Source: Spirochaetia bacterium
Lineage (GTDB): Bacteria > Spirochaetota > Spirochaetia > UBA9216
Direction: 5' to 3'
DNA: 64,000 bases
Assembly: GCA_963677925.2 (NCBI GenBank)
Contig: CAXXYH010000004.1
Coordinates: forward strand, 1,088,001 to 1,152,000
Position numbers and translations under genes: made by a program. The notes beneath the pieces are model-generated. The model was not told the DNA's origin. It was given only the letters and a program-made list of their open reading frames with translations, and did not search any database. Within the stretch, counting starts at the first letter, position 1. Every line of letters begins with the position of its first letter. Of the stretch, positions 7,432 to 64,000 are shown in pieces.

Positions 7432-8904
7432 TTACTGTAAATTGTTATTTATAATCTTCTGAGTCTGTTCCAGGACAGCTTCAGGAGTCATTCTTCCGGA
7501 AAGCGCGAATCTAAGCATTTTCCACATTGTATTCTTATAAATTCCGAAGGCCTGATCCGGGGGAATGATTGTTCCGGTTTCCGATCCGACGGTCAGCTGC
7601 TTCATGTATCTGTTTGCCTCTGCGGCAAGTTCCAGTGCCGCTTCTGATGCGGGTAATTTGGAAACTGCTGCCGTAAATCTCTGCTGAACTCCTGTTCCGC
7701 AGAGATATTCGATAAGTCTGACGGCTGCGGCGGTATTGCGGCTTTTTTTAGGCACTGCAAAACCCTTGAAATCAAGAAGTCCCGAAAGCCGGATTCCGGT
7801 TTCAGAGTTGATCGGCAGAGGTACTGCCTCAAAGGGGATTCCGAGCTTTTCAAAATAGGGAATGCTGTATGAGGCGCTTATGATCATTCCGACATCGCCT
7901 GATACAAACATTGATGTCATTGCATCACGTTCCATCGGCTCCATCAGCCCCCTCTCCTGCAGACTTAGAATATACTTCAGTGATTTGATATTAGCCTCAT
8001 CATTAATAATTACCGATCCGTCGGGTTCAATCAGCGTCTTTTTGCCGAAGCTTATCTGAAAGGGGATAAGAAAAGATGATGAGTAGGCATTCCATGCCGA
8101 CGGAATTATTTCCCGGTTTTTTAACTGCAGGGCGTATGTTTCATAGTCCTTCGTTGTCCAGCTGTTTTTAGGAGTCTCCATCAGTCCGGTGTTGATGAAC
8201 ATCATCTGGGCATCATAGTAAAAGGGAACCGCCCAGGTTTTTCCGTTAAGACTGAAGGCCTCCCTGCCTTCTTTTATAAGTCCTTCAGGATACATGTAAT
8301 CAAGATTCTGTATGCTTTCCGATTTTGAAAGACTTTCCATATATGTCGACTGAACCATTATTAAATCAGGGACGCTTCCGCCTCCGCCTGAAACAGCAAT
8401 GAGTTTGGAGTCGGGCCGGGGCACCGAAACCGTGTTTATGCTTATGTTATGCAGCTCTGCATATCTGCTGATTTCTTCTTTTAGAAGGTCTTCCCCTTCC
8501 CAGTTTGTCCATATTTCAAGCTTTGAAGTAATCAGCTTTTCACCCCGCAAATCGATGCCCTGCACATCCTCTACAGTCCATCCGGGACCTTTAAGTGCCC
8601 ATTCTGAATCTGTCTTGATCAAATATATCCGGGGAAGCTGATCGGCAAGCCGGGTTTCTTTTTTTTCTATCAGGCCGTCTTCTATTGAAATATTCATTTT
8701 CCAGGCGTCATACATGGGAGGGAAGAGTTCATCAATAGATATTCCAACCGCGTTATTACCCTCTGCAGGTACCGGATAGCTTAATGTCTGAAGCTTTTCA
8801 GATGTAAAAGATTTCCATGGTTTTCCATTCAGGGTGAAATCAAGAGCGTTAAGGCTTACGGAGGCTGAGACTAATAAGAGAAAAAGAATCGATTTTTTGG
8901 GCAT
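7432..8904 (-). CDS. extracellular solute-binding protein (family 1) with an extra N-terminal domain
   Basis: signal peptide; GSVPDLIMV, NGKTWAVPFY, FVSGDVGMII and GFAVPKKSRN motifs of sugar-type SBPs. Confidence 0.85.
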   Translation of the reverse strand: MPKKSILFLLLVSASVSLNALDFTLNGKPWKSFTSEKLQTLSYPVPAEGNNAVGISIDELFPPMYDAWKMNISIEDGLIEKKETRLADQLPRIYLIKTDSEWALKGPGWTVEDVQGIDLRGEKLITSKLEIWTNWEGEDLLKEEISRYAELHNISINTVSVPRPDSKLIAVSGGGGSVPDLIMVQSTYMESLSKSESIQNLDYMYPEGLIKEGREAFSLNGKTWAVPFYYDAQMMFINTGLMETPKNSWTTKDYETYALQLKNREIIPSAWNAYSSSFLIPFQISFGKKTLIEPDGSVIINDEANIKSLKYILSLQERGLMEPMERDAMTSMFVSGDVGMIISASYSIPYFEKLGIPFEAVPLPINSETGIRLSGLLDFKGFAVPKKSRNTAAAVRLIEYLCGTGVQQRFTAAVSKLPASEAALELAAEANRYMKQLTVGSETGTIIPPDQAFGIYKNTMWKMLRFALSGRMTPEAVLEQTQKIINNNLQ

Positions 8905-8907
8905 CCC

Positions 8908-9007
8908 ACTTCCTTTCCAAATACGGGAGGCTGCTCTGTTTCCGGAACAGCCCTTCGACCCTCATTCCTTAAATATTGTGATTCTTAGGTATCAGGGTTC
9001 GGAAGAA
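8908..9007 (-). promoter_or_regulatory. Moco (molybdenum/tungsten cofactor) riboswitch motif
   Basis: minus strand reads TTCCGAACCCTGATACCTAAG...GAGGGTCGAAGGGCTGTTCCGGAAACAGAGCAGCCTCCCGTATTTGGAAAGGAAG then ATG; GCCTCCCGTATTTGGAAAGG and the GAAA-capped stem are Moco RNA hallmarks; the RBS lies in the closing stem. Confidence 0.85.
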
Positions 9008-9060
9008 TAACGGGATTATTTTATATTCAATTTATGAAGGGGTCAAGGATTATATAAAAC

Positions 9061-50042: not shown

Positions 50043-51116
50043 TTGGCAGTTGAAATCGTTTATGAAGAAAATAATAAAATTGGTATAATTTTCCCTTTTG
50101 ATGCCCAGATTCTGGATATTGTACGCACAATACCCGGAAGACAATGGCAGCCCGCAAATAAAAAATGGACATTTCCGGATACTGATGCAAATATGCAGCA
50201 TTTTCTCTTATCATTATATAAAACCGGCAGGTTTAATGTGGATGAGAAGGCTCTCGAAAATCAGGAACCGTCTCATAGCCGCTATTTGGAAAAAATGCTT
50301 CAGTATCTAAAGCTTAGAGACTATAGTCCTCATACTATTGAAACGTATAAGATGCAGCTCAAGTGGTTCTTTGATAGAACAGAACTTTCTCCTTCAGAAG
50401 TCACGACCGAGGATATCAAATTATATCTGGAGAAAATGCGGACACTGGCGGGGTGTTCAAGAACATACTTTGTACAATGTGTGAGCGCCCTGAAAAGCTT
50501 CTATAAGTATGGTTATCCCGGCGGTCTGTTTAATCCTGCAGCATCGATTCCCATGCCGAAAAAAGAAAAGAAGTATCCGGATATTCTATCCAGGGAAGAA
50601 GTGAAGAAGATAATAACATCTCCGTCGAATATTAAGCACCGATTGCTATTATCATTAATATACTCTGCAGGTCTCCGAGTAAGCGAAGCCGTTATAATAC
50701 AGTTGCAGGATATTGATACCGATAGGAAAGTAATTCATATCAGGCAGGCAAAAGGACGAAAAGATAGATATGTAATGCTTTCAACTGAGATTATTAATAT
50801 GATTAATCAATACAGATCCAAAGTGATGGTGCATACATGGCTTTTTCCTGGCAGTGCAGGTGCGGATACCCATCTTGCTACAAGATCTGCACAGAATGCC
50901 TTTTATAAAGCTATAGAAGCAACAGGTATCGAAAAAAATGTAAGTATACATTCTTTAAGACATGCCTTTGCCACTCATCTGTTGGAAAACGGTACAGACC
51001 TGAGATATATTCAGGAGCTCTTAGGTCACCGTGATCCAAAAACAACACAGATTTATACACATGTAAGTACTAAAGACCTAAAAAATATAAATAGTCCACT
51101 GGACGGGTTATTATGA
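50043..51116 (+). CDS. tyrosine recombinase associated with the cassette array (HARP-like + SAM-like + catalytic domains)
   Basis: GLRVSE, AKGRKDR, HSLRH, LGH, IYTH catalytic residues intact; LRDYSPHTIETY SAM-like domain; directly upstream of the first cassette. Confidence 0.93.
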   Translation: MAVEIVYEENNKIGIIFPFDAQILDIVRTIPGRQWQPANKKWTFPDTDANMQHFLLSLYKTGRFNVDEKALENQEPSHSRYLEKMLQYLKLRDYSPHTIETYKMQLKWFFDRTELSPSEVTTEDIKLYLEKMRTLAGCSRTYFVQCVSALKSFYKYGYPGGLFNPAASIPMPKKEKKYPDILSREEVKKIITSPSNIKHRLLLSLIYSAGLRVSEAVIIQLQDIDTDRKVIHIRQAKGRKDRYVMLSTEIINMINQYRSKVMVHTWLFPGSAGADTHLATRSAQNAFYKAIEATGIEKNVSIHSLRHAFATHLLENGTDLRYIQELLGHRDPKTTQIYTHVSTKDLKNINSPLDGLL

Positions 51117-51190
51117 ATAACAGGTTTATAAGGATTTAAGCTGGAGGGTTATATGAATGATATACCAGTTTATAATTCTGAGTTTATATG
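51117..51190 (+). other. candidate primary integration (attI-equivalent) site
   Basis: between the recombinase stop and the cassette 1 start (TTATATGC at 51184); TATAA-TTCTGAGT-TTATA core and a GGGTTATATGA box complementary to TCATATAACCC of the long attC-like sites. Confidence 0.45.
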
Positions 51191-51265
51191 CAATGGACCC
51201 GACAAGAGGAAGACGCCCGGACCTCCGGCCGACGGGCGAAGAGACATAAAGGTGGGGGATTTTTT

Positions 51266-52735
51266 ATGCAAGATTTATATATAAAATATAATAAGAAAGA
51301 TAATAAAATTGATTTTGGGCAAACAAAAGGCTCAATAATCGAGATTACTATAAAGCCACCTTCAATCGTTAAAGAAACAAAAGAAACAGGCATAACGAGA
51401 ATATCTGCTATTCAAGAAGATTTTGATAATCTAATTTCGGGAAAGAAGATGATTGACGTTAATAAAACGACTCTCGAACATTGTTATATCTTGGATAAAA
51501 AGGATCCTTACCGATTAGCGGCGACAAATTTTATTTTAAAAAATGAAAAGGATATTGAAGAATATAGTGAAATTCCAAAAGAAAATGATGCTGGTATATA
51601 TAAAAACTATGTAAAAGCATTTTTAGAAGAATTTACAAGATGTACGAAACACATTCCGTTTGCTGAAAAAATTAAAGTCTATCCTTTACCATTGTTGACT
51701 CCATGTAATGTGGAAGTATTAGTAGGTAAAGATGGTGTGTGCTTTATTTTCTCATCAGAAAGTAGACCTGAAAAAGTAAGTGTTTCCTTAGATATAAATA
51801 AAATAATAGAGGAACTTCTTCTGCCTCATCCTACTAATAGAAGATATTCATCATATGGACCTAATACTATTTTTAATTTTATCTGCTCAGATGAGAATTT
51901 TATACATGTGGTAGGGGATGGGAATGCGTTTTTAGATTCTATGCTAGGGAATCCAGTATTTTTGATTTTTGAAAAATCGTTTCATGGTTATTATTCCAAT
52001 ATGAATTTTATAAGAAATTATCCTGATACGGGACTTCAAGTTAAAAAGAAAGTTGAATATTGTGAAATATTTGGTAATAACCATATCTCTAACTTTTCAC
52101 TTGAAAACGCAAGGAGTAGAGCTAGGATAGTTGCGTATAAATCAATTTTGAGTAGTGTTACAGGAAATGTTAATAAAGTAGAAGAACTTAAAAATGTCTT
52201 GATAGAATTGAAAAACAAAATAAACAATGATGTCGGTGAAATAGAAATTGAGAAATTTATTGATTCAAATAAATGGATTTTAGAGAAAGGGATAGGGTGT
52301 CAAAAATATTTTTCACAAATTTCGATACCGAAAGATTTATTATATGATGCTGATGGTGGAATTAAACCTGATAAATATATGATGAATAATGACGGATATT
52401 GTGATATTTTAGATTTAAAAAAACCATCAGCCAAACTAATTGTAATAAAGAATAACCGCAGTCATCAATCTAGTTCTTTAACCGAAGCGGAGGCACAAAT
52501 TGATAAATATATTGATTTCTCTCGTGAACCAAAGGTTAGAGATTATTTATTAACGCTTAATATAAAAATTACGAAACCTGATGGAATTGTATTGATTGGG
52601 AGAACCCCGAAGGAATATTTAAAAGAATGGATTGATATAAAAAAGAGATTACAAATAAAAGTATATACTTATGATGATTTAGTTAATAATTTGGATAATT
52701 TAATTGATTGGATAGATAAGATTCTTACAATTTGA
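51266..52735 (+). CDS. cassette 1: Shedu-like (DUF4263) anti-phage nuclease with long N-terminal region
   Basis: C-terminal E.EIEKFI..N.WIL, KPD, ILDLKKP, LTEAEAQIDKY, P.GIVLIGR, VYTYDDL; start moved to 51266. Confidence 0.75.
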   Translation: MQDLYIKYNKKDNKIDFGQTKGSIIEITIKPPSIVKETKETGITRISAIQEDFDNLISGKKMIDVNKTTLEHCYILDKKDPYRLAATNFILKNEKDIEEYSEIPKENDAGIYKNYVKAFLEEFTRCTKHIPFAEKIKVYPLPLLTPCNVEVLVGKDGVCFIFSSESRPEKVSVSLDINKIIEELLLPHPTNRRYSSYGPNTIFNFICSDENFIHVVGDGNAFLDSMLGNPVFLIFEKSFHGYYSNMNFIRNYPDTGLQVKKKVEYCEIFGNNHISNFSLENARSRARIVAYKSILSSVTGNVNKVEELKNVLIELKNKINNDVGEIEIEKFIDSNKWILEKGIGCQKYFSQISIPKDLLYDADGGIKPDKYMMNNDGYCDILDLKKPSAKLIVIKNNRSHQSSSLTEAEAQIDKYIDFSREPKVRDYLLTLNIKITKPDGIVLIGRTPKEYLKEWIDIKKRLQIKVYTYDDLVNNLDNLIDWIDKILTI

Positions 52736-54520: not shown

Positions 54521-54843
54521 GCATAACAGGGGCTATATGCTCGTCGCTAAACGCTCCTTGGGCTTCGCCACATTTTTATTTTCTGAATTGGGTAATTGGG
54601 TACAGCATTTAACAAGAGATTTGGAGTAGTCAAAACCTTTGTCACAGTTCTGGCTAAAGACACTCCGCGCTGATCGCGCTACGTTCCAGAACTGCGCCAA
54701 GCCTCGGAGACTCGGCCGGTTTCGCTACTCAAATCGTCGTTAAATGCACAGAAATGTGCCAATAGTTTATGATTGAGAAATACGGGTAAGTGGTGGTAAA
54801 ATTAAGAAAAATAAAAACGTCATATAACCCCGGGGCGTTATGA
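54521..54843 (+). repeat. attC-like site 3 (long, 323 bp)
   Basis: same ends as the short sites, with an approximately 240-bp structured arm replacing the ACGGC..GCCGT hairpin. Confidence 0.85.
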
Positions 54844-55761: not shown

Positions 55762-56085
55762 GCATAACAGGGGCTATATGCATCGTCGCTAAATGCTCCT
55801 CGGGCTGCGCCACATTTTTATTTTGTAATTGGGTTAATAGGGTATAGCATTTAACAAAAGATTTGGAGTAGTCACAACCTTTGTCACAGTTCTGGCTAAA
55901 GACACTCCGCGCTGATCGCGCTGCGTTCCAGAACTGCGCCAAGCCTCGGTGACTCGGCCGGTTTCGCTACTCAAATCGTCGTTAAATGCACAGACATGTG
56001 CCAATAGTTTATGATTGTGAAATACGGGTAAGTGGTGGTAAAATTAAGAAAAATAAAAACGTCATATAACCCCGGGACGTTAGCT
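55762..56085 (+). repeat. attC-like site 4 (long, 324 bp)
   Basis: near-identical to site 3. Confidence 0.85.
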
Positions 56086-57040: not shown

Positions 57041-57367
57041 AGCTAACAGGGGTTATTTGCTTCGTCGCTATGTGCTCCTCGGGCTTCGCAACATTTTTAT
57101 TTTTGTAAATGGACGATATGACAAAAGGCATTTAACAATGATTTGCAGCAGTCCTGGCTATTTTCACGGTTTTAGCTAAAGACGTTCCGCGCTGATCGCG
57201 CTGCACTCTAAAACCGAGCCAATGCCGTAGGAGACTACGGCCGCCAGGCAGCTGAAATCGGCGTTAAATGCACAGACATGTGCCAATAGTTTATGATTGA
57301 GAAATACGGGTAAGTGGTGGTAAAATTAAGAAAAATAAAAACGTCATATAACCCCGGGACGTTATAC
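57041..57367 (+). repeat. attC-like site 5 (long, 327 bp, divergent arm)
   Basis: AGCTAAC-AGGGGTTAT...CATATAAC-CCCGGGAC-GTTATAC. Confidence 0.85.
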
Positions 57368-58783: not shown

Positions 58784-58875
58784 AGATAACAAGGGTTACA
58801 CGCTCCGGCCATACGGCCTGCGGGCTGAGCCACATTCGGCTACACCGAACGTCGTGTAACCCTGGAACGTTATCT
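58784..58875 (+). repeat. attC-like site 7 (short, 92 bp, divergent)
   Basis: AGATAAC-AAGGGTTACACG...CGTGTAAC-CCTGGAAC-GTTATCT; compensatory stem changes relative to the other sites. Confidence 0.85.
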
Positions 58876-58990
58876 GCAATGTTTCCGCCAAGAGGAAGAT
58901 GCCCGGACCTCCGGCCGACGGGCGAAGAAGAATGAGGTTTGAATATACTAATTAGTGAGATAAGATAAAATAAAAAAATGAGGTAGCATT

Positions 58991-59560
58991 ATGAAAGTGT
59001 TTATTTTAACTGTTTTAGGAGTAGTCTCAACAAGAATTTTGGATTTATTCACTACATATAAAATTACTCCGGATTTAGAGAAAGAAAGTAATTTATTTGT
59101 AAAGTTGCTTGGGGAAACTGGAGGTTGGGCAGCGATTTGGATATTTCAAGCAATTGTAGTAATTTTACTTCTCTATTTAGAATATTTAAGAATAAAAAGT
59201 CCAACCGTCGAATATGTAGAAGATGAGGGTTTGAAATTTAAAGAATATTTTTCATTAAATTATTCGAGTAAGAAAGATGATTTAATAAAATCAGTAATGA
59301 ATTTACCATTAAAGAAGAGGTTGATGATCGATCTATTAGGATATATTGGTACAAGAACTTTACTATTTGGAACAATTCCTGTCTGTTTATCAAGTCTGTT
59401 TGCGATTTTAAACTCTTCTTATCGAAGTTTCTATGTAGATAATAGTTTATGGAGAATACTGTATTTAATAATGGCAGTAGTATTAGTGAGTTTTTATATA
59501 AGATTTTTTTGGATAAGATTTAAGGATTATGAGAAGAAAGATATTTTAAAGAAAATGTAA
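58991..59560 (+). CDS. cassette 8: hypothetical membrane protein
   Basis: four TM segments; DLFTT....PDL.KESN motif. Confidence 0.75.
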   Translation: MKVFILTVLGVVSTRILDLFTTYKITPDLEKESNLFVKLLGETGGWAAIWIFQAIVVILLLYLEYLRIKSPTVEYVEDEGLKFKEYFSLNYSSKKDDLIKSVMNLPLKKRLMIDLLGYIGTRTLLFGTIPVCLSSLFAILNSSYRSFYVDNSLWRILYLIMAVVLVSFYIRFFWIRFKDYEKKDILKKM

Positions 59561-59637
59561 GAAAGAGAGAAAGAGAGAAAGAGAGAAACCAGCCCTGGCT
59601 CCGCCGTACGGTCTGGCTGAAGAGGCGGAAACACAGC

Positions 59638-59816
59638 AGATAACAGCGGCTATGTGCGGCGTCGCTAAACGCTCCTTGGCCTACGGCATATTTTGTTTTG
59701 GCATCGCTTTTGCGAAGAGGTAGAAAAATATAGGGTAAAGGCGTCGAATGCAAAAGTGCTGCCAATCGGCCTGTAGGGCCGACCACAAAACATCACATAA
59801 CCGCGGGACGTTATAG
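59638..59816 (+). repeat. attC-like site 8 (intermediate, 179 bp)
   Basis: AGATAAC-AGCGGCTATGTG...CACATAAC-CGCGGGAC-GTTATAG with a different inserted arm. Confidence 0.85.
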
Positions 59817-59930
59817 GAAATATTTTGGCTAAGAGAAAGACGCCCGGACCTCCGGCCGACGGGCAATAAGGAAAAAAAGAATAAATTTTAAAATTGATAT
59901 ATTATGTCAATATATAAGAAATGAAACGTA

Positions 59931-61057
59931 TTGAAAAGGATTCTATTATTTTTATTATTATTAGGAATAACCTCATGTAAAAACTTTTTTCCATATTATC
60001 AAAATGGATACCATTTCAATCAAATATTTTCTAAAGATACAAAACTTATTTTAGATGAAAAAGCAGATTCATTCTCTGCGTTTATATCTGAGACTTCTAA
60101 AGTTTTAGTATATTATAGTACTGATGGGATGGTGCACTTGATAGATTTGGAAGGATTGATTGAAGTTTCCACCATCCCTTGGGTTGATAATTCAAATTAT
60201 TATAATGATATTGTTCCTGATTTTAAACAATTGTATATTTATGAAAATTATTTGTATCTTCTAGGGTCAACAGATTGTCTGGTATATTTGATTGAGGATA
60301 TATCAAATCCATCTTTTAAATATTCTATTAGTGAAAATAATACCTATAATTTAAACACTACCTATTATTTAAGTTTAAGATGTATGGATAATAAAATATA
60401 TATTTTAGATTCTAATTCATTTTCATACTATAAACTATTATTAATTTTGGATGCAGATAATATGCTAGAAATTGAAAGACATTATTTAGATTCTTTTGAA
60501 GGAGTAATTGATAAAGAAATTTACTTAAATTCAAATTATTTATACACTTTTTCAAGTGAGCTTAAAATTGATAAAGATGGTAATCCTTTTACAATAACAA
60601 ATCAAATGATTGTTTATGATATTACTGATATTTCTAATAATTATGAATTGGTCGATATAAATTCTATCAGTTTAGAGGACAATGGATTTAATATATATAA
60701 TGATATTATAGTAAGTGATGGAGCAATAGGTTTAAATTCAGAAGAGTATTTTTGGAGCATAATAAAATTAGATAGTGAAAAAAATATGAATTTCTACAAA
60801 AATGTAATTCAACAGATGAAATAAACTTGTTTAGTTATTTTGATTTAGATTTTGATTTTAATAATATTTTAATCGGGAATTATTTTGTTTATGATATAAG
60901 AGAGTTAAATAGTCCAAGATGGATTGGGACTATTGATGAGGATTTGAAAGACATCGAAGTTGTAAGAAAACTTCAAACTGGAGATAACTTATTTTTATTT
61001 GAAAAAGGTAGTGATAGTGAGAATGAAATAGCTTTAGTGAAGTATGCTTTTAATTGA
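59931..61057 (+). pseudogene. cassette 9: LVIVD-like beta-propeller lipoprotein, frameshifted near 60800
   Basis: lipobox ITSC; IEDISNP, VYDITDISN, VYDIRELNSP repeats; the two ORFs join if one A is added to the A5 run at 60798-60802. Confidence 0.65.
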
Positions 61058-61156
61058 TAAAGTTTGTTTTGGGATACTGTTAAAGTTGAAAGTTGTATGT
61101 TTAAGAGTCCAGCCCTATCTCCGATGTACGGTCTGGCTCAAGAGCCAAAATACTTC

Positions 61157-61479
61157 CTATAACAGGGGCTATATGCTCAGCCCATTCGGGCTTCGGGCTG
61201 CGCCACATTTTTATTTTATGGATTGGGCTATTTGGGTATAGCATTTAACAAAAGTTTTGGAGCAGTCCTGGCTATTGTCATGATTCTGGCAGAGACGTTC
61301 CGCGCTGATCGCGCTGCACTCCAGAATCACGCCAATGCGCGCGAAGACACGCGCCGCCATGCAGCTCAAAACGTCGTTAAATGCACAGACATGCGCCAAT
61401 AGTTTGTGATTGGTAAATACGGGTAAGTGGTGGTAAAATTAAAAAAATAAAAACGTCATATAACCCCGGGACGTTATGC
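61157..61479 (+). repeat. attC-like site 9 (long, 323 bp)
   Basis: CTATAAC-AGGGGCTATATG...CATATAAC-CCCGGGAC-GTTATGC. Confidence 0.85.
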
Positions 61480-61950
61480 GGACATCGCCGGAGCATGGTT
61501 ATGGGGTGGAGAAAGTTCCGAACAAGAAGTGATTACCAAATAGTTTGCAATATTCAATTCGCCCTAGATTGAGGAAGATTTTTGATTTTGATTTGGATGT
61601 TGTTGGAAGAAGGTCGTTAAAATTGACGAAGCTTGTTCTGGCGTGAAAGAAAAAGTATTGTCTTAAAATTATCAAAATCTTTTTTGAAGATGGAGCAGGT
61701 TTTACCATTTTGCAAGTCTGATTCACTCGCATAGCTCGTTGACTTGCGACTTAATAAAAATGATTGTTTTACTTGCAAAGGGCGAATAGAATATTGAGAA
61801 GAAATAGAAAGAGAAGATTGTATAGATTATTTGATTGATCGGAATCTTTCTCTAATAAAGGCGACGTCGCATAACAGGGCACATGCGGCTACGGGGTCAA
61901 GCCCCTTCGCCCAAATTGGCCTGCGGCCAACTTCGCATATGCCCGGGACG
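61474..61950 (+). other. cassette 10: ORF-less structured cassette (includes attC-like site 10, 61869-61956)
   Basis: no credible ORF; nested long-range complementary segments; paralog of cassette 11. Confidence 0.75.
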
Positions 61951-62426
61951 TTATGCGGACATCGCCGTAGCATGATCTTGGGGTGGAGAAAGTTCCGAAC
62001 CAGAAGTGATTACCAAATAGTTTGCAATATTCAATTCGCCCTGGATTGAGGGAGATTTTGGATTTTGATTTTGTGGTTGTCAGAAGAAAGCCGTTGCATC
62101 TGACGAAGTTTATTCTGACGTGGAAAAAAGTATTGTTTTATAATTATCAAAATCTGCTTCGTGGACTTGGCAGGGTTTTCCGTTTGGCAAGTCTGCCTCA
62201 CTCGCTTTGCTCGTTGACTTGCAGGTGAAATAAAAATGATTGTGAAAGTCGCAAAGGGCGAATAGAATATTGGGTAGAAATGGTAAGAGGAGATTTGTTA
62301 GGTCATTTGATTGATCGGAATCTTTCTCTAATAAAGGCGACGTCGCATAACAGGGCACATGCGGCTACGGGGGCAAGCCCCTTCGCCCAAATTGGCCTGC
62401 GGCCAACTTCGCATATGCCCGGGACG
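61951..62426 (+). other. cassette 11: ORF-less structured cassette (includes attC-like site 11, 62345-62432)
   Basis: diverged tandem copy of cassette 10 that keeps the paired segments. Confidence 0.75.
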
Positions 62427-62535
62427 TTATAGGAAATGCCCATCAAAATCTTTGAAAGATCCTCGCCATCCATGGCTCGGTTTAGAAGAATAGAAAGAAG
62501 TTGACAATCCACTACAATGTAATTACAGTATAAAT

Positions 62536-62820
62536 ATGGAACATATCCAGTTTGAATGGGATAATAAGAAAGATGAGCTAAATCAGAAGAAGCATAAGAT
62601 AGGTTTTGACGAGGCAAAAACTGTATTTTATGATCCATCTGCATTGTTGATTCATGATCCAGATCATTCTGAAGATGAAGAAAGATTCATAATTATGGGG
62701 ATGAGTCAAAGCTTGAAGATCTTAGTTGTTTGTCATTGTTATAGATCTAATGATGAAGTTATACGAATAATATCTGCTAGAAAAGCAGAGAAAGAAGAGA
62801 TTAGGCAATATGGAGGATGA
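62536..62820 (+). CDS. brnT: cassette 12: BrnT-family toxin
   Basis: FEWDNKK...N..KH.I.F..A..VF.D...EERF...G...IRIISARKA; candidate own promoter TTGACA at 62501. Confidence 0.9.
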   Translation: MEHIQFEWDNKKDELNQKKHKIGFDEAKTVFYDPSALLIHDPDHSEDEERFIIMGMSQSLKILVVCHCYRSNDEVIRIISARKAEKEEIRQYGG

Positions 62821-63040
62821 AGATATGAGAGATTCATATGATTTTTCGAATGCAAGAAAGAATCCTTACATTACAAAATTAAAGAAGCAAATCACAATCA
62901 GATTGGATGAAGAAACCATAGATTATTTTAAAGAGATGTCAGAAGAATCAGGGATAAAATATCAGCAATTAATAAATCTTTATCTGGCTGATTGTGCAAA
63001 GAAAAATCTAAAATTAAATATAAATTGGAAAGCCTCTTAA
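62810..63040 (+). CDS. brnA: cassette 12: BrnA-like (RHH) antitoxin
   Basis: YDFSNARKNPY...KKQITIRLD...IDYFK...GIKYQQLIN. Confidence 0.85.
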   Translation: MEDEDMRDSYDFSNARKNPYITKLKKQITIRLDEETIDYFKEMSEESGIKYQQLINLYLADCAKKNLKLNINWKAS

Positions 63041-63093
63041 AGCCCAAAGTACGTCCTGTACTTTGGGTAAATAATAAAAGTGATGGGCACTTC

Positions 63094-63188
63094 CTATAAC
63101 AGGGGCTATGTGCTTCGTCGCTATGCGCTCCTCGGGCTGCGCCACATACGGCTTACGCCGTACGTCACATAACCCCTGGACGTTAGCT
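63094..63188 (+). repeat. attC-like site 12 (short, 95 bp)
   Basis: CTATAAC...CACATAAC-CCCTGGAC-GTTAGCT. Confidence 0.9.
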
Positions 63189-63313
63189 GAAATGCCCCCG
63201 CGAAGAGAAAGACGCCCGGACCTCCGGCCGGCGGGCGATAAGGAAATTATAATATGCATAATTGATTTACAAGTCTAAATATAGTACTATATAAGCACTA
63301 ATAGGAGTTTATT

Positions 63314-63598
63314 ATGAATTTAAGAGAAGATATTAAGCCGATTTCATATATTAAAACAAACGCAGCAGACATGTTAAAACGTGTTAATGATACTCACAAC
63401 CCGATTGTAATAACCCAGAATGGTGAAGCAAAAGCAGTTTTGATGGATACTGAATCATATCAAGAAATGAGGAATAGTCTTGGAATTTTAAAATTGCTTG
63501 CAGAAGGTGAACGTGATATCGAAAAGGGAGATATCTATACACAAGATGAAGTTTTTGAAGAAATTGAAGCAAAACTGTTAAATATGAAGAAGAAATAA
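63314..63598 (+). CDS. cassette 13: Phd/YefM-family antitoxin
   Basis: IKPISYIK...PIVITQNGEAKAVLMD. Confidence 0.9.
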   Translation: MNLREDIKPISYIKTNAADMLKRVNDTHNPIVITQNGEAKAVLMDTESYQEMRNSLGILKLLAEGERDIEKGDIYTQDEVFEEIEAKLLNMKKK

Positions 63599-63602
63599 TG
63601 AT

Positions 63603-63917
63603 ATGGAAGTTATTTGGACTAAAACAGCAAAAAATGATTTAAATGAGATAGTTGAATATATAGCAAATGACTCTGTAGAAATAGCATTAAATAAATTTTA
63701 TGAAATTAGAGAAAGTACTAAACCCTTAGAGAAATTTCCTGAACAAGGAAGACTGATTCCAGAATTAAGAAATGAAAACATCTTGCGATATAGGGAAATT
63801 ATAATAAACCCATGGCGGATAATGTATAAAATAGAAGATAAGAAAGTTTATATTATAGCAGTCATAGATGGAAGAAGAAATGTTGAAGATGTTTTAATGA
63901 AAAGGCAACTTCGTTAA
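63603..63917 (+). CDS. cassette 13: RelE/ParE-family toxin
   Basis: WTKTAKNDL.EI.EYIA...FPEQGR..PEL...YRE....WRIMY...IAVIDGRR. Confidence 0.9.
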   Translation: MEVIWTKTAKNDLNEIVEYIANDSVEIALNKFYEIRESTKPLEKFPEQGRLIPELRNENILRYREIIINPWRIMYKIEDKKVYIIAVIDGRRNVEDVLMKRQLR

Positions 63918-63982
63918 AGAAACATTAAAAGAATCCAGACCTAACTCCGTCGAACGGTCTGGATGAAGAGCGGGGGCACTAC

Positions 63983-64000
63983 AGCTAACAGGGGCTATGT
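63983..64000 (+). repeat. attC-like site 13 (5' part, cut by the window end)
   Basis: AGCTAAC-AGGGGCTATGT. Confidence 0.8.

Follow-up and report, generated by a model that had tools for sequence, protein, structure and literature searches.

Gene-less cassettes with conserved nested helices in an integron-like array of a Spirochaetia bacterium

The role of gene-less cassettes has been open since their description in Vibrio in 2006, promoter activity accounting for some of them. The question returns at the end of a 64,000-nt stretch of a Spirochaetia bacterium genome (contig CAXXYH010000004.1; hereafter the window), where two adjoining units of 477 and 476 nt, cassettes 1 and 2, lie within a cassette array beside a tyrosine recombinase. 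An earlier note, made from the letters of the window, had taken them for tandem paralogues that share no open reading frame (ORF) yet conserve a nested secondary structure, and had proposed a mobile structured RNA or fold-back single-stranded DNA (ssDNA). What is kept in a cassette of this kind, and in which form of the nucleic acid would it act? The two units were found to belong to a family of 17 copies in two species of one genus, evidently non-coding and mobile, in which nested helices have been retained between two subfamilies, types A and B, that are only ~64% identical.

Cassette boundaries, copies and mobility

The array occupies the end of the window and runs beyond it, in the genome sequence, to at least window-equivalent position 66617; its units begin at ~51187, and every one terminates in a GC-rich imperfect palindrome of the form ...ATAAC ... 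GGGACG|TTAT.... Both cassettes open with the TT of G|TTAT (61474 and 61951), and the second ends on G 62426. Direct repeats at 475-477 nt spacing span the two units (block identities of 92%, 86% and 77%), which align pairwise over 478 columns; identity is 84.2% between their bodies (402 and 401 nt, as far as the ATAAC core), and the ~80-nt attC ends differ at one position. The tandem pair of paralogous cassettes is thus borne out by repeats, boundaries and alignment. The stretch 61474-62426 was found in no RNA run, but is present in two DNA-type sequencing runs of one study, whose contigs over 59500-64000 are broken at the repeated attC and leader modules and contain many repeat-driven joints; exact run contigs include both bodies (X1) and the junction of the cassette 1 attC with cassette 2 (X2), and are uninformative on expression or excision.

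Using BLAST and nhmmer with a family profile over the whole genome, only the two window copies were recovered from the window's own genome (G000), whereas a second species of the same genus (G001) holds 15, all in a single array on contig C9 (10 of type A and 5 of type B). The G001 type A bodies are 89-93% identical to cassette 2 (91-93% for nine of the ten, 89% for the remaining one) and 84-86% identical to cassette 1, which like cassette 2 is of type A, while identity between types B and A is 63-66%. Among themselves the G001 copies share 97-100% identity, with one exception at ~93%. Genomes were queried with single sequences, BLAST and nhmmer being sensitive enough to reach the 64%-identical type B. 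The family was not found in nine other genomes of the same family or order, nor in plasmids, and a type B search of a 401-genome sample of the class returned, outside the two species, just three matches of 45-51 nt, none supported by nhmmer. A scan of genome contigs with a pattern of 14 specified bases, which proved insufficiently specific, gave at least 122 stretches, and nhmmer found among those listed four weak matches (E = 0.026-0.082); the corresponding scan of metagenome contigs gave eight stretches and one weak match (E = 0.024). All five were judged to be chance. Both pattern scans need exact motifs, so that distant relatives may escape them, and records of the window's own genome may be omitted. 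By these searches, the gene-less family appears to be genus-restricted.

Several lines of evidence bear on coding capacity. Near-identical copies are separated by indels of 1, 2 and 3 nt, and substitutions lack codon periodicity in four comparisons (p = 0.43, 0.78 and 0.79, and 0.048 in one small sample). No pair of start and stop is common to types A and B; the sole start column that both types share (7 of 12 A, 5 of 5 B) leads to differing stops, and Pfam, searched at E up to 1, matched none of four candidate frames. On the minus strand, a frame of 115 codons was set aside. It is open in 8 of the 10 G001 type A copies, but it extends across the upstream attC, both window copies and two G001 copies interrupt it, type B lacks it, and Pfam gave no match for it. 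The cassettes do contain chance frames, of 77 and 82 codons, which are not common to the copies; through them the cassettes formally exceed the strict length rule of Boucher et al. (2006), which admits no ORF above 150 bp. The absence of an ORF common to both cassettes, as first described, therefore holds, and no small ORF was found conserved across the two types. Taken over all 17 copies, the comparison shows no conserved reading frame and a family that is, to all appearances, non-coding.

The copies also sit in different contexts, one of them following attI and the others a variety of attC sites. All 12 type A and 5 type B copies start at TTAT, and the left breakpoint of homology lies exactly at G|TTAT. 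The G001 recombinase is 96% identical to that of the window, and the sequence following its stop codon is the same in both genomes until ...TTCTGAG, past which the arrays differ. In G001, the first unit after the attI junction is a type A cassette, which shows no mismatch over 483 nt, attC included, with a copy 20.7 kb downstream; this is the pattern expected from a recent excision and reinsertion, or from a copy event at attI, and bears out the proposed mobility. These comparisons show what appear to be discrete cassettes, cut at G|TT and moved and copied by the recombinase of the array. The family makes up 15 of the 33 cassette rows of the G001 array, the attI-adjacent slot included; the rows were defined by a boundary regex and one boundary added by hand, and a few probably contain more than one cassette.

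The attC of the cassettes reads GCATAAC ... GGGACG|TTATGC, with an inner pairing of GGGC-ACATGCG with CGCATATGCCC. The attC consensus is RYYYAAC/GTTRRRY with inner (L) boxes, and R', reading GTTATGC, departs from it at the fifth base. The earlier note had assigned the cassettes a site subtype of their own. This stands for the subtype of the window copies, which occurs on family members exclusively (3 of 3 occurrences, two genomes), but not for the family, since 9 of the 12 type A bodies carry subtypes also found on protein-coding cassettes (seven in G001 with a second subtype, two with a third). Near-identical type A bodies are thus joined to three attC subtypes (61869-61880, 62345-62356 and the G001 copies), homology ending just past ATAACAGGG, and the attC may have been exchanged independently of the body, through gene conversion or an occasional crossover on the R'' side.

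Nested helices and the promoter-like block

RNAalifold, applied to the 17 bodies (414 columns), predicted a structure of 61 pairs in seven helices: H0, the nested long-range helices H1, H2 and H3, the hairpin H4 and two small hairpins (Table 1). H0 joins the first 15 nt of the cassette to the 14 nt ending in its own ATAA, H1 is extended in type A as TTCCGA/TCGGAA with one bulged T, and each arm of H2 holds the palindrome AATATT. The 24-nt loop of H4 is conserved in sequence. Cassette 1 is the more degenerate copy: its -35-like hexamer is altered, its small hairpin H5 is disrupted, and H3 has lost its outer pairs. All four helices named in the earlier note are nevertheless in place in both cassettes.

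Paired bases were found in 99.3% of alignment cells, compared with 33-48% when partners were slid by 1-3 columns, and none of 500 shuffles reached the observed paired fraction or covariation score. Eight of the 61 pairs are changed on both sides and still paired (three in H0, one in H1, two in H2 and two in the H4 stem), all of them on the branch between types A and B, and five further pairs are changed on one side and still paired. Covariation among the homologues is thus seen on a single branch, and the compensatory changes between the two subfamilies favour the nested structure. Divergence is concentrated in the unpaired parts, as had been suggested from the two cassettes: cassettes 1 and 2 differ in 6 of 122 paired columns (4.9%) and in 57 of 278 unpaired ones (20.5%; Fisher p = 4e-5), types A and B in 21 of 122 paired and 117 of 268 unpaired columns (p = 2e-7), and over six comparisons unpaired columns diverge 3-11 times more than paired ones. 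The substitution pattern indicates that the nested helices are under selection. This conservation of the fold is clearer than that documented for other gene-less cassettes in the literature searched.

The block best conserved between A and B consists of an A-rich tract, a -35-like TTGTGA (62240-62245), a 17-nt spacer and a -10-like TAGAAT (62263-62268), on the sense strand, and looks like a sigma-70 promoter. TAGAAT and the 17-nt spacer are present in 17 of 17 copies, and TTGTGA in 15 (cassette 1 has TTGTTT and one G001 copy TTGAGA). The -10-like hexamer falls within the 3' arm of H2, so its invariance could equally be explained by the helix. In a simple scan, the region 61000-62600 held 8 promoter-like sites, against 3.2 +/- 1.7 in shuffles. 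The promoter idea, which the earlier note had mentioned as background, thereby gains a concrete candidate within the family.

H0 is general to the cassettes of these arrays and not specific to the family. In a comparison of each cassette's first 20 nt with the 20-nt segment that terminates at its own R''-type core, 16-19 of 20 positions were complementary in 23 of the 29 non-family rows from both arrays, and at least three of the six rows of low complementarity are cassettes merged by the regex. Examples from the array (52877-66617) are 62426-62445 with 63081-63100 and 59810-59830 with 61143-61163. The mismatch recurs at positions 10-11, and where the plus strand has the conserved A.C mismatch, the bottom strand would have a G.T wobble. 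The helix persists even where its arms are 0.5-1.5 kb of coding sequence apart, so selection must act on it at the level of DNA. In effect, the circular cassette gains from H0 an attC outer stem of ~20 bp, the classical attC R box, at 7 bp, being much shorter.

Elaborate folds are also present in the attC sites themselves. Four giant attC sites of 317-321 nt (Table 1) carry, in their central part, a branched structured insert of ~250 nt in place of the tip of the normal ~85-nt site, and 16 of 95 RNAalifold pairs are changed on both sides among the four copies, a stronger covariation than in the A/B family. At least one giant site exists in G001, upstream of the type A copy at C9:478673. Recombination sites in this array can thus contain elaborate folds that are conserved. 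Homology of the family body to the giant insert was rejected, the matches being merely 10-12 nt long.

A further set of folded cassettes, termed type C, was observed in another genus (G004, contig C10, 17613-18817, minus strand), where three tandem ORF-less paralogues directly follow attI. Their ends pair over ~27 bp; between two copies that are 70% identical, both partners have changed in 6 of 63 predicted pairs, and at one position the hairpins of these copies have wholly different sequences. Homology of type C to types A and B was undetectable by nhmmer or BLAST, a short two-block resemblance in MAFFT being insufficient, and type C showed no enrichment of promoter-like sites.

Single-stranded DNA, RNA or promoter

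The reading favoured here, at a probability of roughly 40%, is that the helices act in ssDNA, where they would extend the general cassette-end helix inward and aid the cassette's own excision and insertion, with the sense promoter as an offer to its neighbours. H0, ~20 nt long, would serve the attC folding of the excised cassette, and H1-H3 would continue inward from it whenever the cassette is single-stranded, so that a fully zipped body would keep the attC sites on its two sides together, with little of the single strand left bare. Zipping of this kind would favour the cassette's own excision and re-insertion and make of it a selfish, self-folding element, while its double-stranded form would offer the conserved sigma-70-like promoter, able to read into the next cassette. 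The covariation of the giant attC sites, the occurrence of H0 in 23 of 29 non-family rows and the unrelated fold-back type C cassettes at attI all point to a role at the DNA level.

A more specific version, which we regard as unlikely, is that of a self-zipping, cargo-free cassette selected for its own transfer, whose nested helices prolong the attC outer stem until the ssDNA circle becomes a nearly closed dumbbell. If true, the dumbbell would be an unusually good substrate for an Xer-like recombinase, and would explain both the family's share of nearly half the array and its attI-proximal slot. Rolling-circle plasmids and filamentous phages use single-strand origins primed by RNA polymerase. 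By analogy, the duplexing of the -10-like hexamer in H2 could mimic such an origin and provide the cassette circle with its complementary strand.

A number of observations weigh against the ssDNA reading as a whole. All changes in pairs separate A from B and thus fall on one branch, among about five independent lineages; the compensatory evidence is good, not statistically deep. The conserved pairs take up about a quarter of the nucleotides, and the helices are separated by large, asymmetric internal loops, which suits a compact rod poorly. Two unpaired blocks, the loop of H4 and the one preceding the -10, are strongly conserved; they call for a reader of their sequence and are left unexplained by a purely structural ssDNA role. 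Where H2 and H3 changed on one side, the resulting G.T lies on the plus (top) strand, not on the bottom strand used in integron recombination. Fold energy was rejected as a distinguishing mark, coding cassettes scoring alike: with DNA parameters, z-scores were -2.6 to -6.0 for four family bodies and -1.4 to -6.0 for nine coding cassettes of both arrays (15 shuffles each). Family-family adjacency in the G001 array is at chance (7 adjacencies, P = 0.46), and the tandem arrangement was accordingly discarded as a functional signal; each of the five type B copies touches a type A copy (P = 0.03, marginal). As to the promoter, it is here a consensus match, and the analogous type C cassettes are without such a site.

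Next in standing, and possible if somewhat unlikely, is a structured RNA of the sense strand, a regulator or cis element borne by the cassette, transcribed by read-through or from a promoter that a family member upstream supplies, and using its conserved loops as functional sites. Compensatory changes together with strongly conserved unpaired blocks are typical of functional RNAs, and the one-sided H2 and H3 changes just mentioned would be G.U pairs in a plus-strand transcript. A family member with a sense promoter-like site lies directly upstream of 7 of the 15 G001 copies and one of the two window copies. There is precedent in sRNA-Xcc1, a product of an ORF-less cassette as cited in the available text of PMC6557892, and regulatory RNA is among the options proposed by Boucher et al. 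(2006, PMC1382264). An RNA fold-energy z-score of -3.25 on the plus strand (-5.07 on the minus strand) also speaks for it. Strand preference, however, is lacking. The predictions for the two strands have 47 pairs in common, each of them Watson-Crick throughout the five lineages, while the plus-strand-only pairs include 3-6 G.T and the minus-strand-only pairs 4-7 of the complementary kind. With similar wobble counts on both sides, assignment of a strand through wobble pairs was dropped. A scan of 61000-62600 found no 5' promoter-like site for a discrete RNA and no terminator. Rfam at gathering score gave nothing in the cassettes, the sole match in the window being a molybdenum cofactor (Moco) riboswitch elsewhere, and a search of 60800-62600 at E up to 10 gave one chance snoRNA match (E = 2.6). 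Complementarity of the cassettes to the recombinase gene and attI region amounted to 9 common 9-mers, against 5.9 in shuffles, none of them in a conserved loop. Also counting against an RNA are the modest share of nucleotides in conserved pairs and the presence of the outermost helix in most other cassettes, coding ones included. A group IIC-attC intron was discarded separately, there being no group II Rfam match up to E 10 and no ORF, and the unit lying between attC sites.

Structures in ssDNA and RNA are hard to distinguish bioinformatically for integron-like motifs, as stated in the accessible text of Weinberg et al. (PMC5737381). Between the two forms that the earlier note had left side by side, ssDNA is at least as likely; the outermost helix is found generally among the cassettes of both arrays, as a feature of the DNA. 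The conserved fold that the note described is upheld, and its identification as RNA is not, given the absence of strand preference, 5' promoter, terminator and Rfam match in the searches above.

It is improbable that the family is a plain or regulated promoter cassette, its repeats being paired protein sites in double-stranded DNA (an operator pair or accessory sites of the recombinase) whose arms change together. The fixed 17-nt spacing within the best-conserved block, the overlap of the H2 3' arm with the -10 and the palindrome in each H2 arm would all suit it, and most tested gene-less cassettes were sense promoters in the available text of PMC11014356. Base pairing, however, explains three nested, differently centred repeat pairs and a covarying hairpin stem more economically; the one-sided changes are transitions that preserve a wobble, which a binding-site model does not predict, and the type C cassettes again do without a promoter-like site.

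Two last explanations are very improbable. A protein of 23-25 residues encoded by type A (frame from 61495 in cassette 1 and 61972 in cassette 2), with the remainder untranslated, accords with a same-start frame open in 12 of 12 type A copies, the same stop in 10 of them and a GGAG 7 nt ahead of the in-frame ATG or TTG, but the frame is missing from all five type B copies, where a 1-nt insertion shifts it to a stop after 10 codons, one of its codons reads R, I, T or K among near-identical copies, codon periodicity is absent and the same bases form H1. A decaying, functionless remnant, either a pseudogene or a neutral duplicate held similar by gene conversion, would fit the 97-100% identity of all G001 copies but one (~93%) and the pairs lost from cassette 1, but not the retention of every helix at 64% identity between A and B with all 13 changed pairs still paired, the selective conservation of paired columns or the lack of a Pfam match for the four candidate frames.

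Platform, neighbouring features and known systems

The array recombinase is oriented in the same way as the cassettes. It scores 232.5 against NF040815 (XerA / integron integrase, NCBIfam), above the cutoff of 220, and 194 bits against TIGR02249 (integron integrase), below the cutoff of 265. Its alignment with IntI4 (PDB 2a3v) splits, 25 query residues standing opposite 66 chain residues (~40 lacking), in the region where integron integrases carry a specific extra segment, and it is collinear with the archaeal XerA structures 4a8e and 5hxy, with ~75 extra N-terminal residues. Judged from these alignments, the recombinase is XerA-like and without the IntI-specific segment. Homologues covering the N-terminal extension occur in 32 of the 401 sampled genomes of the class (E up to 1e-60), and in other genera all six neighbourhoods examined contain arrays with ...ACG|TTA... 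junctions. The units have what defines integron cassettes, namely an attC-type palindromic end, occurrence of the same unit in different contexts and an array beside a tyrosine recombinase and attI. The platform thus works like an integron yet fails one defining feature of the family of integrases, and is not canonical.

Other features of the window are collected in Table 1. The first cassette of the array carries, by its domain match, a phage-defence gene of the Shedu type, and the cassettes just downstream of cassette 2 hold toxin-antitoxin modules with a promoter-like site nearby. Many coding cassettes have a GC-rich leader hairpin (...GCCCGGACCTCCGGCCGACGGGC...) after their start, counted by regex in 5 of 12 G000 rows and 8 of 33 G001 rows; its loop contains ACCTCC, which we take to resemble an anti-Shine-Dalgarno sequence. 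The riboswitch matched in the Rfam search lies outside the array.

Table 1. Coordinates of the cassettes, their helices and other features within the 64,000-nt window.
Feature	Position	Strand	Remarks
Cassette 1, type A, 477 nt	61474-61950	+	body 61474-61875, then attC
Cassette 2, type A, 476 nt	61951-62426	+	body 61951-62351, then attC
attC of cassette 1, subtype alpha	61869-61950	+	R''-type core ...GCATAAC 61869-61875; crossover after G 61950
attC of cassette 2, subtype alpha	62345-62426	+	one difference from the cassette 1 attC
H0 arms	61474-61488 with 61861-61874; cassette 2: 61951-61965 with 62337-62350	.	3' arm flanks own R''
H1 arms GGAGAAAG/CTTTCTCT	61508-61515 with 61846-61853; cassette 2: 61985-61992 with 62322-62329		
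H2 arms	61549-61565 with 61779-61795; cassette 2: 62026-62042 with 62255-62271		16 pairs (17-18 nt repeat)
H3 arms GATTTTGAT/ATCAAAATC	61582-61592 with 61671-61681; cassette 2: 62059-62069 with 62146-62156		
H4 hairpin GCAAGT...ACTTGC	61712-61747; cassette 2: 62187-62222		6-bp stem, 24-nt loop
Promoter-like, most conserved block	62227-62271 (cassette 2); 61751-61792 (cassette 1)	+	consensus match
Tyrosine recombinase of the array	50043-51116	+	Pfam Phage_integrase PF00589, E = 2e-42
attI-like junction region	51117-51186	+	common to G001 up to ...TTCTGAG
attI-proximal cassette	51188-52735	+	515-aa protein, Shedu SduA C-terminal domain (E = 1.9e-12)
Giant attC sites	54521-54837, 55762-56079, 57041-57361, 61157-61473		317-321 nt
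Leader hairpins	51190-51250, 58841-58932, 59782-59873, 63154-63245		GC-rich, after start of coding cassettes
Promoter-like site TTGACA, 17 nt, TACAGT	62501-62529		near downstream toxin-antitoxin cassettes
Toxin-antitoxin cassette	62536-62820	+	BrnT and following small ORF
Toxin-antitoxin cassette	63314-63917	+	Phd/YefM with ParE
Molybdenum cofactor riboswitch	8894-9016	-	Rfam RF01055, 74.5 bits

The family can be set beside several known elements. Miniature inverted-repeat transposable elements (MITEs) are dispersed in the genome and flanked by target-site duplications. The cassettes resemble them in being small, non-coding and multi-copy, with long imperfect terminal inverted repeats; that identity was nonetheless rejected, all 17 copies lying at G|TT junctions of the two arrays and nowhere else in the genome (BLAST, nhmmer), with no target-site duplications and no transposase-type ends. 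As in attC sites, which function in folded form, imperfect inverted repeats are present; H0 forms the outer stem of the cassette's own attC in the circle, and H1-H3 nest on the body side of it. Unlike attC, however, the body helices lie outside that site, between the R' of the preceding site and their own R'', and the R-type duplex of the body faces the opposite way relative to the loop; the body is therefore not itself an attC.

Closer parallels are found among integron cassettes, compared here as far as the available texts of the cited papers go. The non-coding cassettes of Vibrio are paralogous (up to 45 copies), confined to close relatives and conserved, and two explanations were put forward for them, selfishness on the one hand and a role as promoter or regulatory RNA on the other (Boucher et al., 2006, PMC1382264). 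The present family shares with them the lack of a conserved ORF, many paralogues per array, homologues in close relatives and conservation across species, and differs in its compensated nested helices, its host, which is of a different phylum, and a recombinase in the same orientation and without the IntI-specific segment. Of 29 gene-less cassettes from Vibrio, most had sense promoter activity (Blanco et al., 2024, PMC11014356), which was also reported for cassettes of Treponema-type 'reverse' integrons (Tansirichaiya et al., 2019, PMC6557892). Those promoter-bearing cassettes are likewise gene-less and lie in long arrays, and the conserved sigma-70-like site described here is a further likeness, as is, for the 'reverse' integrons, an integrase in cassette orientation; compared by description only, they differ in that the promoter of the present family is a motif match and that those papers describe no conserved fold. 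The term 'secondary structure' has 0 occurrences in the available main texts of PMC1382264, PMC11014356 and PMC6557892, and no report of a conserved fold in the bodies of gene-less cassettes was found in the literature searched. Like sRNA-Xcc1 of a Xanthomonas integron (cited in PMC6557892), a non-coding cassette proposed or shown to yield a functional RNA, the family is non-coding; unlike it, the cassettes are ~400 nt long, multi-copy, without 5' promoter or terminator signals of their own, and known from DNA alone.

With two subfamilies at 64% identity, 17 copies, natural compensatory variants, a candidate promoter and recent copying to attI, the family is a compact test case in which one can ask directly whether the fold is kept for recombination, as in a selfish cassette, or for an RNA function. 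The platform adds interest of its own through an Xer-like recombinase without the segment specific to integron integrases and through attC sites that reach 321 nt and covary strongly in their interior. Paralogous, lineage-restricted gene-less cassettes have been known since 2006; what is described here is a further such family, with unusually clear structural conservation and on an unusual platform.

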